DNA from: an uncultured Spirochaetota bacterium
GTDB lineage: Bacteria > Spirochaetota > Spirochaetia > SZUA-6 > Fen-1364
DNA: 64,000 nt
Direction of reading: 5' to 3'
Assembly: GCA_963820525.1 (NCBI GenBank)
Contig: CAWGAA010000001.1
Coordinates: 1,728,001-1,792,000, forward strand
The position numbers were made by a program. Every line of letters starts with the position of its first letter. Within the stretch, counting starts at the first letter, position 1. Shown piece by piece: positions 18,001 through 27,000 of this stretch.

Positions 18001-21000
18001 AGAGGATACACGATGCTTCCGGCGACCGCTCGCGCAATCACTTTGCTCTTCATGTGACCGCTCCTCCATCACCCCGGCAGACAGCGTGTTTGCTCCCTCT
18101 CTTGAAGCGCATGCTAACCATAAAAGGCGGAGAATTCAATCGAAAACAGGGAATTGGCACGAATCGGATGAAAAAGCCGCGCCGCCGCGGGGAACGGCAG
18201 GACTGCCATCAGGCGGCGCGAATGTTTACTCCAGGGTGACTTCCTGAGATCCGCGGAAGGAATGTATGGGGGACGAGTCCGCGGCGGCAAGCGCGTAGAT
18301 GATGTCCAGGGCCTGCTGCCCATCGGCGATATACGTCGCGGATTTCAGAGCGAGCTCGAGAGTGGTCTTGCCGCCGTCCTCCTTCATCGCATAGGAGACT
18401 ACAGAGTCGGCGATTTCCTTGTTCTCGGCATCGGAGTGTTTGTGGCCGATCCCCACCTGAGGCTTGAACACAGTCTTTCCATCGGCCACGAAGCCCATGA
18501 AAATCGTGGAGCCGTCCATCTTTCCAGGGCCAAGGCCTACGGAGACCCACCCTGTTGTGTTGCCCGTAAACCCGATGTAGATGGTACTGTCGGTCCGGCT
18601 CAGGTACAGCACCGCTTTCCCGAGGTCCTTCTGGAAAGCGTACTCGCCAGCGGCGATCACCCCGTCAACCTCGGGCTTCTTGGAGCCGGCCTTGAGGGAC
18701 GCATCCTGGGCAAAACAGGCGGCGCCGATAAACGCGAACAATACTACAAACCCCGCCGAACGGTGAAATGACTTCATCATGATGGAGATTCTCCTTTGCG
18801 GAAGAAAATACTCACGCCGAGGGGCTCCTGGCAACGCGGGCGGCGGAGAGCCGGAATCCGGGGAGCGCGGCTCCCGAGGCCGCCCTGCGAGACACGGAAA
18901 AAGTACCAAGAACCCGGGACGCGCGACCACAGAACGTTGACAGCCGGCTTTCTCCATGCCAGCATGAGGCCATGCAGGAGCGCATCGAGCGAAAGCGCCT
19001 CGTCATGCTTCGCATCCTCCAGGAGGCGGACAATCCCGTGGGCAGCGACCTGATCACAAAGGAGCTGAAGCAGCACGGCTACGACATGAGCGAACGCACG
19101 GTTCGCTTTCACCTCCTGGCCATGGACAAGGCGGGGTACACCCGCTACATCGGAAAGCGGGGGCGGCGCATCACGGAAAAGGGCAAGCTCGAGCTCTCCA
19201 ATGCCATGGTCCACGAGAGGGTGGGTTTCCTGGCCGCGAAGATCGACCAGCTCACCTACCTCATGAAATTCGACATCGCGAAGCTCCAGGGCAGCGTGGT
19301 TGTCAACACAAGCCTCATCGAGAAGAAGGAGCTGGAGCGCACCTACCCGTTCGTACAGAAGGTATTCGAGGCGGGCTACGCCATGGGCAAGCTCCTTACC
19401 CTCTACGAGCCGGGATGCAGGGCGGGGGAGATCGTGATCCCGCCCGGGTTCGTGGGTTTGGGAACGATCTGCTCGATCACCGTCAACGGAGTGCTCCTCT
19501 CCCTGGGAATCCCAACCCACTCCCGCTTCGGCGGGCTTCTGGAGATGCAGGAGAGGAAACCACTGCGCTGGACGGCCATCATCAACTACGACGGCACCAG
19601 CCTGGACCCGCTGGAGATCTTCATCAGAAGCGGCATGACCGATTACGTTGGAGCAACCGAAGTGGGAAGCGGCCAGATCGGAGCCAGCTTCCGTGAGGTC
19701 CCTGCAGGCAGCCGCGACAGCGTGGTGGAAATAGCGGGAAAGCTGGAAAAGATCGGTTTGGGTGGATTCATGGAGATCGGCTGGCCTGGCCAGCCGCTCC
19801 TGGGGATCCCCGTGGACGAGAACAGAATCGGGGCCATCGTCATCGGGGGGCTCAATCCCGTCGCCATCCTGGAGGAAATGGGGGTCACGGTATATTCGCG
19901 GGCTCTCTCGGGGCTCGTGGATTTCCATAAGCTCTTCCATTACAAGGAGTTGGGAGAGCGGATCAGAAAAATGAAGTAATCGGGCTTTTATTCACGTTTT
20001 TTATAAATTTTCATTGACAGCAGACGCCTTCTATGGTAATTTGTCGAAAAATATTCATGGCAATGGTTTGCCATAAAGAGTTGTTACCGGCTTGTCTTTG
20101 CCATAAGGGAGAGATTTTCGTCAAGTCGGGGCGTCCCGTCCGCCCGCCAGGAGGGATTCATGGAAACGACCACAAAAGATTCCCTTGAGCAAATCCTCAC
20201 CCGTCACGGGCGGAAACGCACCCAGCTCATCGAAGTCCTTCACGACATCCAGAAAAGCTTCAGCTACCTTTCCGAGGATGCGCTCAAGACCGTATCCGAC
20301 AGCCTTGAAGTGCCTCTCATCGAAGTCTTCAGAGTGGCCAACTTCTACAAGGCCTTCAAGCTGAACCCCCAGGGCCGGCACCTTCTCACCCTCTGCATGG
20401 GCACTGCCTGCCACGTGAGGGGAGCGGACAAGCTCGCCGACGAGGTGAGCGGCCAGTTCGGCATCAAACCGGGGGAGACCACTCCCGACGGAGAGCTCAC
20501 CCTGGAGACCGTCAACTGCCTGGGGGCCTGCGCCCTGTCTCCCATCGCGATTCTCGACGGCAAATACTACGACAGGATGACCTACGCGAAGCTTCGCTCG
20601 CTGATCGAGAGGGTCACCGGAAACTCCCGCGAAAAGAAAAGCGTCACGTCAGGATGAAACCCATGGCAATAAAACCCACGACCGAGACCCTGAAGAGACT
20701 GGCCGATACCCGCCTGAAGGAGGACAGCGCCTACAGCCGGATCGCCATCGTGTGCGGCGGGCCCGGCTGCAGCGCCTCCGGCTGCCAGACCATCGTCGCA
20801 TGCCTCCAGCAGGAACTTGCCCGCAACGGGATCGGCAAGAAGATCAAGGTGAGGACCACGGGCTGCCACGGCTTCTGCGAGCAGGGACCCCTCATGGTGA
20901 TAGAACCCGAGAACCTCTTCTATTGCAGGCTCAAGCCGGAAGATATCCCCGAGATCGTCGCCGAGACCCTCGGCAAGGGCACGGTGATCGAGCGGCTCCT

Positions 21001-24000: not shown

Positions 24001-27000
24001 GCGCCCTGGAGCTGAAGAAGCGCGGCTACATCATCACCCCGGACCCCACCTTGGAGGCGGTTCAGGCCGCGTACAAGGACGGGGCCATCCGCGAGTTCGA
24101 GCGCCACTCCCGCCTGGGTTTCGTGACCGAAGACGGATTTTTCAAGGAGATCGAGAGGCTGCGCAAGCTCGGCTTCGAGCGCATCACCCTGAAGACCGGC
24201 GCCTACTCAATGAGGGAGCTCGCCATGGCCATCAAGTATTCCTCCATGGCGCATATCGACCTTCTGACCATCGACGGGGCGGCAGGGGGAACAGGCATGA
24301 GCCCCTGGCGGATGATGGAGGAGTGGGGAATCCCCACCTTCTACCTGGAGTCGCTCACCTATGAGTTCGCAGAAAAGCTCGTAAAGAGGGGAATGCGCCT
24401 GCCGGACCTTGCCATCGCGGGGGGCTTCTCCACCGAGGACCACCTGTTCAAGGCGCTTGCCATGGGCGCCCCGCACATCAAGGCCGTCTGCATGGGCCGC
24501 GCCATGATGATCCCCGGAATGGTGGGCAAGAACATCGACCTCTGGATTAAGGGCAACGACCTTCCCACAACCGTGTCGCGCTTCGGCAAGACCCCCAACG
24601 AGATCTTCGTGTGCTTCGACGAGCTGGCCGATAAGTACGGAAAACAGATGAAGGACATCCCGCTTGGTGCCGTGGGCATCTACAGCTTCTCCCAGAAGCT
24701 CAAGATCGGGCTCCAGCAGCTCATGGCGGGCACCAGGAACTTCAGGCTCTCGACCATCTCCCGCAAGGACCTGATGTGCCTCACCGAGGACGCTTCGAAA
24801 GTTTCGGGCATCCCCTACCTCATGCAGGCGTACCGGGAAGAGGCGGAGGCGGTGCTTCAGAGCTGATCGCTCGCGGTCACGCATGACGGCAAGGCGGCCG
24901 GTCACCCCCGGCCGCCTTTTTATTTTGGCGGGACCTTTCAGATGCTTTCTGTGTTGTCCGAGGAATCGGCCCGCCGTTAAAGGCCTGACCCCCTCGGCAG
25001 ATGCGGCTTGATCCTACCGCCCGGCGTCCTTCGGCGCGAGATCGTTTCCGATGCCGAGATAAACCGGCTTGAATCCCCCTCCGTAATCCAGCTGCGTCGT
25101 CCACACCTGGACCGTGCCGGCGGCCTGCCAGACCCGGCCCTTCTGCGACTTGGCGGTCAAGAGGTAGCCAACGGTCGCTCCTTCGGGCAGGTTCATGGAT
25201 TGGCCGAAGCCCAGCGCGTTGCCCCTCGGCGCCCCAGGCTTTGTCCAGACCATATCGCTGCCGAGAGGCTTCCCCGCGGATGCGTCAATGACGCTCACCG
25301 CTATTCCATATTCTCCCGCGGAATTCTTCTCGAAGTCCTCGCGGTCGGCAGCGCGTTCCTTTCCCGCCGCCCGCGATATATAGCCTGCCACCTTCACGAG
25401 CGTGCCGACCTTGGGCCAGATCGCCCGGGGGCTGCTGCCGAAAAGCAGGAAGGGAACATTCAGCCCCACAATGCCGCCTGAAGGCATCGCCTCGGCATAA
25501 TAGAGGTAATTGCCGCCGCTGGTTGGGACGGCAACTTCAACCTCGACGAGGCGGTTTCTGTCCAGTGTTACCCCCGCCGAGCTGTATTCGATGCTCACGG
25601 CCTGATTTCGGCCCAGGGAACGCACCTGTACGGGAACGGATCCCTGCGCCACGATTTCATCGCTGCGGTAATAGCGCACCGTCACGCGAGCCTGGTCGCC
25701 GATCCGCTCCTTGTTCAATGCAAGGGCATCCGCTTCACGCTTCTCGAGGCGCAGGTTTCTGGCCATCACTGAGATGCGGTCGTTTCCCGTCGGCTGCGCC
25801 GGCTGGGGCGTGACGGGCATCGGCTGAGGTCTGAGGGGCTGTGGCTGCTCTTCTCGGGAAACACGGAGGGTATATCTGGCCGTGCTTCCATTCTCCGCGG
25901 TTACGTCAATGGCGACAACCCGGGTGGCACCCGGATCCACGGCAACGGTTCGACCTGTCTTCTCCAGGGGCGAGCCGTCGACCGTGATGGCTGCCTTCGG
26001 GCTCTGAGCTGATGCCATAAGGAGCACGGAAGGCACGCCGGCGCCGATCTTGGCATCGTAGATGATGATGCCGGGGGAGAAAACGGGCTGGAGCGCAACG
26101 CCGGCGAGCTGGAGCGTATTCAGCATGGTGTTGCCGTCCTTGCCGACCTGAGGCACGACGGGGGCGGGATTAGCGGGCTCTACCGGCTGGGGAGTCACTG
26201 CGGGCTGAACCGGAGACACATCTCGGCTCACCGTCACCTGGTAAAGCCGCTGCGAGCCATCCTCCGCAGTCACCACGAGGCTGACGATGGCGCTCTTGCC
26301 GGGGTCAACAGCCACTGTGACGGTCTTGCTGGAAGCTGGGGCCGCGCCCTGCTCTCCCGCGAGGGAGATGACAGCCCGCGGGCTTGCCGTCATCGTCGTG
26401 AGCTGGACGTTCGTAACGCCCGAGGACAGCGCCAGGCTGTACGATACGACACGGGGAGAAAACGGCGGGAACAGCGCTCCGGCTGAAACGGCCAGGGAGG
26501 CAAGGTCGGCATTGCGGTCAGGGGGCGCCCTCCTGATGACGAGGGAGTAGCGGAAGACATTCCCGTCCTGCGCGGTCACGGTGACCGACATGGGCAGCAG
26601 GTTTCCCTTCTCGAAATCCAGCAGCACTCCCGCCGGGTCCGCCGGGCTTCCCTGATATGAGAAGCCCACGGCGGCCGCGCCAGCCGCGGAGGCCGGCATC
26701 TCCAGGGCTACGCGCGCATACGCGCTTCGCGGCTGGGCATGCACCGTGAGCTGCTTGGTCGCGAAAGGCACGCTTGCGTCGAAGGAGGCGATATTGGGGC
26801 CGAATGTTGGAGAGAGCACGCCCCCGTCCACCGAAAGTACGGCCAGCTGGTAATCGTGATCGGGCTCCGCGCGCACGATTTCAACCGCGTATTGCTGCGC
26901 GCTTCCATCCTGCGCGGTAACCGTCACGATAAAGGGGAAACGCGCGCCGCTGGCGAAATCGAGGACGGCGCCGTTTTTATCCGAGACATTCCCGCGGAAC

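Follow-up and report, generated by a model that had tools for sequence, protein, structure and literature searches.

Bfu enzymes are defined in section 4 of PMC9304861 by a BfuB with Complex1_51K, SLBB, NADH_4Fe-4S and C-terminal ferredoxin domains and a BfuC with a thioredoxin-like 2Fe-2S domain. In the Type 2 enzymes of clade 45 (Wor-Bfu, that is WorABCSL, PDB 9MQX, and the Por-, Bam-, Mbh- and FdhFeFe-Bfu; PMC9304861, PMC12318220), these subunits join a short BfuA that holds clusters A1, A2 and A4, lacks A3 and has a Cys-bearing C-terminus, and they serve a separate catalytic partner; in WorA a C-terminal zinc finger and helix recruit it (PMC9304861, PMC12318220). Glutamate synthase (GltB and Fd-GltS, 1EA0 and 1OFD, or the split archaeal-type GltS) has an FMN domain with exchangeable electron input. 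FGltS of methanogens is a GltS-type subunit with predicted FrhB-like electron input, proposed from gene context to be glutamine-dependent. C. difficile CD0828, as described in the relevant part of PMC11980386, is a free-standing FMN protein that resembles glutamate synthase; it has about 500 aa and carries a metal domain at its N-terminus. Archaeal NrpR binds the operator consensus GGAA-N6-TTCC (PMC2723118).

Here we analyse a bacterial locus, within a window of 64,000 nt, that we compare with these systems. The genome-wide survey's note listed five ORFs, nrpR, bfuC, bfuB, bfuA and the gene for a glutamate-synthase-like protein (GSL), and all are present on the + strand (Table 1). Its inclusion of nrpR in the operon probably does not hold: the 180-nt gap before bfuC (45% G+C against about 61% in the surroundings) has its own promoter-like site and operator, so nrpR is probably transcribed apart from bfuCBA-GSL. 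The promoter-like site is tentative because a consensus scanner did not call it; by eye, a like layout lies 5′ of bfuC in loci L087 and L090. The nrpR product matches Pfam HTH_12 and NRD1_2 (E 2.5e-78) and PDB 3nek (MJ0159; E 1e-27).

Table 1 Features of the nrpR and bfuCBA-GSL locus (positions in the window).
Feature	Position	Strand	Description
nrpR	18972..19979	+	single-unit NrpR repressor, winged HTH and NRD; predicted 2-oxoglutarate sensor
Promoter-like site of bfuCBA-GSL	20014..20042	+	perfect -35 hexamer, 17-nt spacer, weak -10 preceded by TG
Candidate NrpR operator	20059..20072	.	palindrome GGCAA-N4-TTGCC just 3′ of the predicted start
Possible second operator, degenerate	20089..20102	.	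30 bp 3′ of the first; one half-site intact; by eye
bfuC	20160..20657	+	HydC/NuoE-like, C1 [2Fe-2S]; PF01257 E 6.5e-48
bfuB	20654..22516	+	HydB-like; thioredoxin-like, Complex1_51K, SLBB, NADH_4Fe-4S, two Fer4
bfuA	22532..23230	+	Type 2; Fer2_4 and 4Fe-4S dicluster, catalytic domain absent
Six-Cys C-terminal tail of BfuA	23081..23203	+	Cys184, 196, 199, 213, 216, 224
GSL	23277..24866	+	529 aa; Pfam Glu_synthase on residues 290-412 only, E 2.8e-16
GSL N-terminal CxxCxxxCxxxC	23358..23393	+	Cys28, 31, 35, 39; predicted Fe-S cluster, electron entry
Intrinsic terminator at operon end	24891..24928	+	11-pair stem, 9 G-C pairs, T run

Judged by its sequence motifs, bfuC-bfuB-bfuA is a Type 2, clade-45-like Bfu module. 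The Bfu-defining domains were all found as Pfam equivalents in BfuB and BfuC, which bears out the earlier description of a HydB-like subunit with thioredoxin-like, SLBB and C-terminal ferredoxin domains. Alignments to 7t2r_B, 8a6t_B, 7q4v_B and 9mqx_B assign BfuB cluster B5 to Cys34/39/71/75 and B1 to Cys478/481/484/524, with the B3 and B4 4Fe-4S sites also present. The B2/Zn site falls on Cys461, His548, Cys554 and Cys559, aligned with A. mobile C438, H525, C531 and C536; these three Cys and one His are missing in non-bifurcating homologues, according to the passages of PMC9304861 on this site, which also count Ala at the fifth position in 10/1,558 cases. BfuB has Ala there (Ala499), a difference from the clade-45 enzymes. 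Its NADH/FMN-site motifs, GDPGAFMD and GAFVCGES, are of the bifurcating type (expected PGA[F/Y]MD and GAF; Suppl. Fig. 10), and the GES is common to 6/6 clade-45 examples and to no other Bfu row of that figure (PMC9304861); T. kivui HydB has GES too, and the clade-45 likeness is one of motif comparison. BfuB scores 728–767 bits against A. mobile NiFe-BfuB, T. kivui, A. woodii and A. mobile WorB, and T. maritima HydB, at 654 bits, lies below the A. mobile, T. kivui and A. woodii matches. In BfuA, the aligned Cys pattern gives A1 [2Fe-2S] and A2 and A4 [4Fe-4S], with A3 absent. Bifurcation by BfuABC is likely. Pfam finds no catalytic domain in BfuA, in agreement with the note's short, Fe-S-only HydA, and BfuABC therefore needs a partner.

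The best PDB match of BfuA, WorA (9mqx_A, profile positions 1-185, E 6e-45), stops ahead of the six-Cys tail, which does not align to the WorA C-terminus. Five of the six Cys are invariant among 45 aligned sequences, and the tails differ in the three short BfuA proteins without a direct GSL link (L024, L050 and L164). By this comparison the tail is a signature of GSL-linked BfuA, and we propose it as a docking or relay site for GSL.

GSL is a predicted stand-alone glutamate-synthase-like FMN (beta/alpha)8 barrel. Its structure model (pLDDT 91.9) has GltS with 2-oxoglutarate (2-OG) as its top Foldseek match (1ofd, E 1.1e-10), and hhalign pairs it with the GltB FMN domain at a probability of 99.0. 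With a structural aligner, however, the leading matches are hydroxy-acid dehydrogenases and IDI-2 (Z about 25) and GltS is missing from the first 50; the fold thus leaves the choice of substrate undecided. At about 21% identity to GltS, GSL keeps equivalents of most of what we take to be the functional residues of the synthase site (E154, Q197, K223, K229, G232/G233, K306 and GGTG-SP), and its motifs GQGAK-GG and GGTG-SP follow GltB. The GltS arginine R957 is out of register (L246 in GSL), and the other invariant arginines R249, R276 and R279 may or may not substitute for it. Neither the protein nor the operon contains glutaminase, central or GXGXG domains; domain calls thus confirmed the earlier statement that the operon has no glutamine amidotransferase (GAT) subunit. 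No Cys occurs in the GSL loop aligned with the 3Fe-4S motif of GltS, whereas an N-terminal four-Cys motif, putatively cluster-binding, is kept in 113–114 of the 114 sequences that cover that region. CD0828, in the portion of PMC11980386 that concerns it, differs from GSL by a rubredoxin domain, a retained 3Fe-4S motif, an oxidative-stress operon and no Bfu link. GSL is a highly conserved family (70–80% identical between phyla), usually annotated as glutamate synthase, without the parts that the glutamate-synthase reaction requires.

Those parts might act in trans: GSL would contribute the synthase portion of a glutamate synthase that depends on glutamine, a HisH-like or class II GAT protein would be the glutaminase, and BfuABC would take the place of GltD. 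Genes of the hisH/hisF-like, class II GAT and GXGXG kinds adjoin GSL in many loci, and NrpR-type control would suit low ammonium, where GOGAT is the usual route. We nevertheless consider this unlikely: the host genome has no match to a stand-alone GAT (two queries) or GXGXG protein (one query), split-GOGAT clusters already contain their own FMN subunit, the GSL position equivalent to E978 varies (E 76, K 17, D 12 of 118), and a glutamine-driven reaction would have no need for low-potential electrons. A small chance likewise attaches to other chemistry on the same wiring: under nitrogen limitation, GSL would serve as an overflow for carbon and electrons by reducing 2-OG, a different 2-oxo acid or an imine with no ammonium involved, the product being for instance 2-hydroxyglutarate. 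The absent nitrogen-donor domain, the induction expected at high 2-OG, the displaced R957 and the fold ties with alpha-hydroxy-acid dehydrogenases are consistent with it, as is the non-GOGAT role given for CD0828, of another family, in that portion of PMC11980386; the GltB-like motifs and the assimilation genes beside GSL (glnA, amtB, PII and gdh) argue against it.

BfuABC and GSL are very probably redox partners. The survey's metagenome count was reproduced, with GSL downstream on the same strand in 8/28 loci (one with a LysR gene between bfuA and GSL) and nrpR in 2/28; GSL is on the opposite strand in 2/28, and 4/28 loci end in bfuA or within about 120 nt of it. Its 994 genomes with Complex1_51K near Glu_synthase are confounded, as canonical gltB has the same Pfam domain, and the NfnAB-like genes reported beside GSL are near it in only 3/80 GTDB loci, with gdh and a GAF-ANTAR gene intervening. 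GSL is very widely distributed and usually occurs away from Bfu genes, with bfuCBA directly 5′ of it in 5/80 GTDB loci, so it is not an obligate subunit. The dependence runs the other way: 16/16 unseeded genomes with a tail-type BfuA also encode GSL, adjacent in only 6 and unlinked as seen in 10. GSL occurs in 9/9 tail-type BfuA genomes in the phylum of G302 (the close GSL type in 8/9 against 47/291) and in 5/5 in the class of G303 (against 25/245), and G1002 and G226 are further such genomes; the background of the close type is 10–16%. Fisher p-values of 6e-6 and 2e-5 are too strong, because relatives do not count as independent cases and the genomes used are incomplete.

GSL stands downstream, upstream (L213) or convergent (L217 and L220) to the module, and 27 Bfu-adjacent rows correspond to 10–11 changes on the GSL tree. 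A second architecture, bfuC-bfuB::gltD-bfuA-GSL, occurs in 3 genomes from the same taxonomic order and has an eight-Cys BfuA tail related to the six-Cys tail. A distant GSL relative with three full-length members is fused to FrhB (P0254), the design of FGltS, to which we liken it in design only. Alternatively, bfuCBA and GSL may merely share nitrogen regulons while BfuABC works with some other partner whose gene is unlinked. It is common for luxR/bfuCBA operons to stand by themselves (bfuCBA alone behind a divergent LuxR-type gene in 7/28 metagenome loci, with no sign of nitrogen control), GSL reaches a 54% background in one phylum (164/301 genomes, against only 10 with tail-type BfuA), and a single alternative partner was compared, the split-type GltS FMN subunit, whose orthologue in 5/20 genomes fits more poorly than GSL. 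Against this, the 16/16 co-occurrence includes a group with a 21% GSL background, the Cys tail tracks GSL over two Bfu architectures and several independent gene arrangements exist, which leaves co-regulation alone improbable. The survey's view of GSL as the partner of the module is very probably right and gains weight from co-occurrence, the second architecture and the operator. Rather than a third subunit, however, GSL would form a fourth component that docks onto BfuABC.

The operator itself overturns the earlier caveat that no NrpR operator was found. An NrpR-type motif, GG[C/A]A-N6-T[G/T]CC, lies 5′ of nrpR, GSL or bfuC in 25/45 nrpR loci against 6/120 others (mean 1.2, maximum 5 in shuffled sequences), and the candidate operator here ranks first in the genome (score 21.7) with a matrix from which the window was left out. 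The possible second operator is weak and absent from the scored genome matches. As in the archaeal NrpR regulon (PMC2723118, PMC9765008), an NrpR-family repressor occurs with a 14-bp palindrome of equal geometry, GG.A-N6-T.CC, at the promoter; here, however, the host is a bacterium and operator position 3 is mostly C. The matrix scan of the host genome found no operator at glnA, amtB or gltB, and the regulon looks local. ANTAR-type hairpin-terminators occur in 22/105 GSL leaders of non-nrpR loci against 0/45 in nrpR loci. Predicted nitrogen control of GSL is thus by two mutually exclusive routes, an NrpR-type operator or ANTAR-type hairpin-terminators.

Regulators very often adjoin GSL (nrpR in 32/80 loci, a GAF-ANTAR gene directly upstream in 13, and KaiC-HTH and PPDK-like genes in others), and GSL might be a 2-OG or redox sensor or scaffold working with them, with BfuABC reporting the redox state to it. 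Its 70–80% identity across phyla and its coexistence with complete GOGATs fit such a role, but the FrhB fusion and the retained catalytic-site residues favour turnover, and the neighbours appear to be GSL's own regulators because operators and ANTAR elements sit upstream of GSL. We judge a sensor quite unlikely.

We propose that bfuCBA encodes an electron-confurcating Bfu module of Type 2 that is devoted to GSL, although the whole chemistry, glutamate formation included, has in our estimate somewhat under an even chance. Under nitrogen shortage, rising 2-OG would release NrpR from the operator predicted by sequence comparison, and bfuCBA-GSL would be transcribed; binding and induction are modelled on archaeal NrpR. 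BfuBC, whose motifs are seen, would oxidize NADH and reduced ferredoxin jointly and pass mid-potential electrons along A1-A2-A4. The six-Cys tail would dock GSL, stably or transiently, and electrons would enter through the N-terminal cluster, standing in for the 3Fe-4S cluster of GltB. FMNH2 would then reduce the imine that 2-OG forms with free ammonium, yielding glutamate; the residues for this are partly seen. The net reaction would be NADH + 2 Fd(red) + 2 2-OG + 2 NH4+ -> NAD+ + 2 Fd(ox) + 2 Glu, without ATP. From an E0′ of -140 mV, and with ammonium at 10 uM, the couple computes to about -320 to -350 mV. There, NADH by itself would be uphill (+7 to +13 kJ), and the average of NADH and ferredoxin would be downhill (-14 to -8 kJ). 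NADPH at -380 mV would give nearly equal drive, a point against the proposal. The complex could also run in reverse, oxidizing glutamate to 2-OG and ammonium with bifurcation to NAD+ and ferredoxin; Bfu enzymes can work in both directions (PMC9304861, section 6) and gdh is a frequent neighbour. That direction is very unlikely: it computes as uphill unless ammonium is far under micromolar, and a 2-OG-relieved repressor would turn it on with its product already high.

The classification in PMC9304861, as given in sections 4–6 and in the text of its supplement, contains no such Bfu type, as the genome-wide survey's note had claimed. None of the third reactions it lists belongs to nitrogen metabolism, and 17 of its clades have no assignment. 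BfuABC-GSL offers a concrete candidate: the BfuA tail is its sequence signature, its partner shows one-way genome dependence, and its regulator has a predicted operator. The module differs from clade 45 in that the partner is a glutamate-synthase-family FMN barrel, often from an unlinked gene, under nitrogen regulation. A bifurcating module with GSL may represent undescribed ATP-free ammonium fixation in anaerobic bacteria. If so, amination of 2-OG with ferredoxin-boosted electrons would let energy-limited anaerobes take up scarce ammonium without ATP, and the four-gene cassette makes this directly testable. The need for a further route is questionable, because GSL often adjoins complete GOGAT or GDH genes (GOGAT in 12/80 GSL loci) and the host genome has gltBD, gdh and glnA. 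Elsewhere, the electrons for GSL would come straight from ferredoxin or through other plug-in modules (the BfuB::GltD fusion or FrhB). It is possible, if doubtful, that BfuABC-GSL is a third ammonium-assimilation route, in which NADH and reduced ferredoxin would drive the amination of 2-OG with neither ATP nor glutamine when ammonium is micromolar, and that GSL is an unrecognized core nitrogen enzyme with exchangeable inputs (ferredoxin, Bfu, BfuB::GltD and F420). In one anaerobic phylum, more than half of the genomes sampled encode GSL.

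The five genes that the genome-wide survey's note had listed as one operon were confirmed at their positions in the window (table). bfuC and bfuB overlap by 4 bases, and the next gaps are 15 nt and then 46 nt. The nrpR–bfuC gap is 180 nt (45% G+C) and contains a perfect −35 hexamer and a weak −10, not called by the promoter scanner. Because this gap holds a promoter-like site, the transcription unit is probably bfuC-bfuB-bfuA-GSL, where GSL encodes a glutamate-synthase-like protein, and nrpR, counted by the survey as part of the operon, probably lies in front of it.

Features of the bfuCBA-GSL locus and of related loci (positions without prefix are in the window; G000, the window's own genome; L numbers, compared loci)
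Feature	Position	Strand	Remark
nrpR	18972-19979	+	
Candidate operator	20059-20072		
bfuC	20160-20657	+	
bfuB	20654-22516	+	
bfuA	22532-23230	+	
GSL	23277-24866	+	529 aa
Strong terminator	24891-24928		End of unit bfuC-bfuB-bfuA-GSL
Probable lipoprotein gene	25014-27974	−	986 aa; five cadherin-like domains; convergent with operon
Second GSL paralogue (L134)	G000:C1:2132990-2134588		62% identical; Bfu, nrpR and operator absent nearby
gltB	G000:C1:2762916-2767528		More than one frame
Second bfuB	G000:C3:775987-778022		More than one frame
Second hisF	G000:C1:2061888-2062647		More than one frame
Separate bfuC-bfuB-long bfuA cluster	G000:C3:775766-781141		BfuA with GltD; Nfn/Stn-Bfu-like
Second design	L137:4411-11395		
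Second design	L138:3627-10562		Sigma-54 response regulator upstream
Second design	L139:4856-12860		Sigma-54 response regulator upstream; gdh after GSL

The best matches of BfuB among solved structures were all bifurcating enzymes. BfuB carries the cysteines of B5, B1, B3 and B4, and its B2/Zn ligands are C461, H548, C554 and C559. Also present are the PGAFMD and GAF motifs, together with a GES motif common to 6/6 clade-45 examples and to no other Bfu row in Suppl. Fig. 10 of PMC9304861. GES as a sign of NADP was dropped, because WorB carries GES yet binds NAD. BfuA contains A1, A2 and A4, lacks A3 and the catalytic domain, and, as judged from its motifs, is Type 2 by the PMC9304861 definition. 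Its closest structure is WorA, the match stopping at position 185; the tail beyond has six cysteines, five of them invariant in 45 aligned sequences. Because a C-terminal zinc finger and helix of WorA recruit its partner subunit (available text of PMC12318220), we infer that the BfuA tail may be a docking part for a partner. In the ESM Atlas, the tail gave only generic Fer4 matches, under 0.9, and a fusion search covering the 120 top-ranked of 576 longer relatives of BfuA detected no Glu_synthase domain. One single sequence (P0308, 853 aa) is a tail-type BfuB::BfuA fusion.

The GSL model built from 118 sequences was confident (pLDDT 91.9), and prediction without an alignment gave pLDDT 34. Foldseek placed a glutamate synthase with 2-oxoglutarate (2-OG) at the top, and a second structural aligner ranked hydroxy-acid dehydrogenases and IDI-2 first, with no GltS in its top 50. 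Profile alignment with GltB FMN domains reached a probability of 99.0 at 21% identity. Equivalents of E886, Q909, K931, K937, G941/G942, K999 and the GGTGASP loop (A. brasilense numbering), which we take to bind FMN and 2-OG in glutamate synthase, are conserved; the counterpart of R957 is not in register, and the 3Fe-4S loop of GltB is absent. The N-terminal Cys cluster reported in the survey's note is a CxxCxxxCxxxC motif, which 113-114 of 114 sequences share. The PDB, searched both by sequence and by profile, returned no natural GSL relative, only designed barrels and chance matches; no NCBIfam family matched GSL, and the ESM Atlas offered automatic glutamate-synthase names only. The family is large (7,999/7,999 scored candidates) and occurs in 164/301 genomes of one phylum, 52/251 of another class and 25/301 of the window's class. 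No GSL fusion was found among proteins of 927-2645 aa, a search that is weak evidence; two long ORFs resembling GSL fusions, at L202 and L203, are apparently open-frame extensions upstream of an ordinary start.

A BfuABC module without a catalytic site would have to pass its electrons to a partner. The survey's metagenome counts were reproduced, with a same-strand GSL downstream at 8/28 loci and nrpR at 2/28. When genome samples were searched with BfuA and then with GSL, tail-type BfuA, the form with the six-Cys tail, was rare (10/301, 6/251, 2/201 and 2/301 genomes), and GSL was encoded in 16/16 of its genomes (four seed genomes left out; one GSL cut by a contig end, one in two frames, one read from the locus). 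The close GSL type, its rows counted by eye, was present in 8/9 genomes with tail-type BfuA versus 47/291 in a first group (Fisher p 6e-6) and in 5/5 versus 25/245 in a second (p 2e-5), both p-values being overstated because kin genomes are not independent. Adjacency was seen in 6/16, in differing arrangements: GSL follows bfuA, precedes bfuC, is convergent or lies next to the divergent regulator. A FastTree phylogeny with 164 GSL rows, among them some duplicates, requires 10-11 changes to account for the 27 rows adjacent to Bfu. In the branch of the window's GSL, 10/11 rows are Bfu-adjacent, and the members with a name come from Omnitrophota (one record) and Planctomycetia (one record). That GSL matched in 0/4 genomes of the window's own family suggests that bfuCBA-GSL is a transferred cassette here. 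The split-type GltS FMN subunit, the one alternative partner examined, had an orthologue in only 5/20 genomes. Against the link with GSL, numerous bfuCBA operons are solitary and follow a LuxR-type gene (7/28 metagenome loci). A predicted complex of BfuA and GSL that included FMN and three 4Fe-4S clusters scored 0.01 (mark 0.32) and counts neither for nor against the link. A divergent LuxR-type regulator precedes stand-alone bfuCBA at L093, L095, L099, L100, L102, L103, L105, L214-L219 and L223-L225, and a repeated ATAGGCA-like element common to the intergenic DNA of these loci is probably an operator.

At the best 80 of 596 GTDB matches, GSL neighbours are nitrogen genes: nrpR (32/80 loci), a GAF-ANTAR gene directly upstream (13/80), a nearby glutamate synthase gene, either gltB or the split-type FMN subunit (12/80), and further glnA, amtB, PII, gdh, carAB, pyrG and hisFH; bfuCBA lies directly upstream in only 5/80. 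Because of this last count, and because the window's genome also has a second GSL without Bfu as well as canonical gltBD, GSL does not stand in for GOGAT, and it is not an obligate subunit of Bfu. Replacement of a missing GOGAT was dropped because gltBD is present, with gltB in two frames in the assembly; the multi-frame gltB, bfuB and hisF genes may be assembly errors, and if gltB were truly broken, the role of GSL in this genome would matter more. A sensor role for GSL is a rival reading that would suit the regulator genes among these neighbours.

A palindrome search upstream of nrpR, GSL and bfuC yielded GGCAA-N4-TTGCC. The form GG[C/A]A-N6-T[G/T]CC occurs at 25/45 nrpR loci and 6/120 others (maximum 5 in shuffles), counted on the locus set from which it was derived, some loci sharing one genome. 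It has the same geometry as the archaeal NrpR operator GGAA-N6-TTCC (PMC2723118), whose repressor acts 2-OG-dependently (PMC9765008), both according to the available text. Scored with a matrix from which the window had been left out, the candidate operator ranks first in the genome of 5.05 Mb, at 21.7 against 21.4 for the runner-up; the genome-wide scan gave no match at glnA, amtB or gltB. The window shows no enrichment of the archaeal operator in its strict form (38 one-mismatch matches versus 33 expected), and the sole exact match lies inside bfuA. Lie et al. 2007 reportedly deals with bacterial NrpR homologues and may bear on the candidate operator. ANTAR-type twin hairpins over a terminator, scored with an ANTAR consensus, occur in 22/105 GSL leaders at loci without nrpR versus 0/45 with nrpR. 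Such regulation would also be expected if Bfu and GSL were co-regulated only, a reading to set against the 16/16 co-occurrence. ANTAR-type twin hairpins in bfuC or GSL leaders (L001, L084, L087, L081, L185-L189, L191, L192, L194, L196, L198-L201, L227, L235 and L236) overlap a terminator and frequently adjoin a gene for a GAF-ANTAR protein; we read this set of leaders as a nitrogen antitermination regulon.

In the proposed mechanism, GSL is the electron partner indicated by the co-occurrence profile, nitrogen shortage the condition indicated by regulation, and 2-OG the substrate indicated by the residues. Among the rivals, GSL would reduce 2-OG without ammonium, or the reaction would run in reverse. 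The glutamate couple lies at about −140 mV at standard state, too high for a Bfu mid-potential reaction. At 10 µM ammonium and glutamate/2-OG of 10-100, the couple computed from this value falls to about −320 to −350 mV, between NADH and ferredoxin; NADH alone is then uphill and NADH/ferredoxin confurcation downhill. The carriers stand at −280 mV and −500 mV (Table 1 of the consulted text of PMC9304861). Confurcation at low ammonium fits the missing glutaminase, which could alternatively be supplied to GSL in trans. The energetic case is not unique, because NADPH gives nearly the same drive. A redox partnership between BfuABC and GSL appears likely, and the full predicted chemistry is a more doubtful proposal.

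The survey's statement that this type is missing from the published Bfu classification holds for the abstract, parts of sections 4 and 6, section 5 and the supplement text of PMC9304861, which list no glutamate- or nitrogen-linked type and leave clades 1-17 unassigned. The available text of PMC11406978, PMC12018979, PMC12318220, PMC8097209, PMC3448663, PMC11980386 and PMC2725144 describes no such complex, and a search of the openly accessible literature found no description of a Bfu-GSL pairing or a bacterial NrpR motif. On sequence grounds, bfuCBA-GSL is a real, apparently undescribed variant of the Bfu family, and its predicted partner and regulator are better supported than in the survey's note.

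A second design, in three genomes of the same order, comprises a small Pfam-negative ORF (110-118 aa), an extended bfuC, a bfuB::gltD fusion (1060-1155 aa), bfuA and GSL; its short bfuA encodes a related tail of eight Cys, and its GSL belongs to another subfamily. FrhB is fused to a distant GSL relative in P0254, a cluster of 6 sequences of which three are full length: the 800-aa protein combines a ferredoxin/FrhB domain and a GSL-like domain that has a Cys motif of its own, and it is possibly an F420-linked form. Elsewhere, hisH-/hisF-like genes are interspersed among GSL and split-type glutamate synthase genes (L025, L026, L031, L036, L038 and L039), and a hisF-like gene adjoins GSL in many Dehalococcoidia loci. 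A PPDK-like (ATP-grasp) protein of 860-915 aa adjoins GSL, mostly directly upstream, at L031, L033, L038-L040, L045, L052, L057, L058 and L232, and a KaiC-HTH-cupin protein takes its place at other GSL loci.
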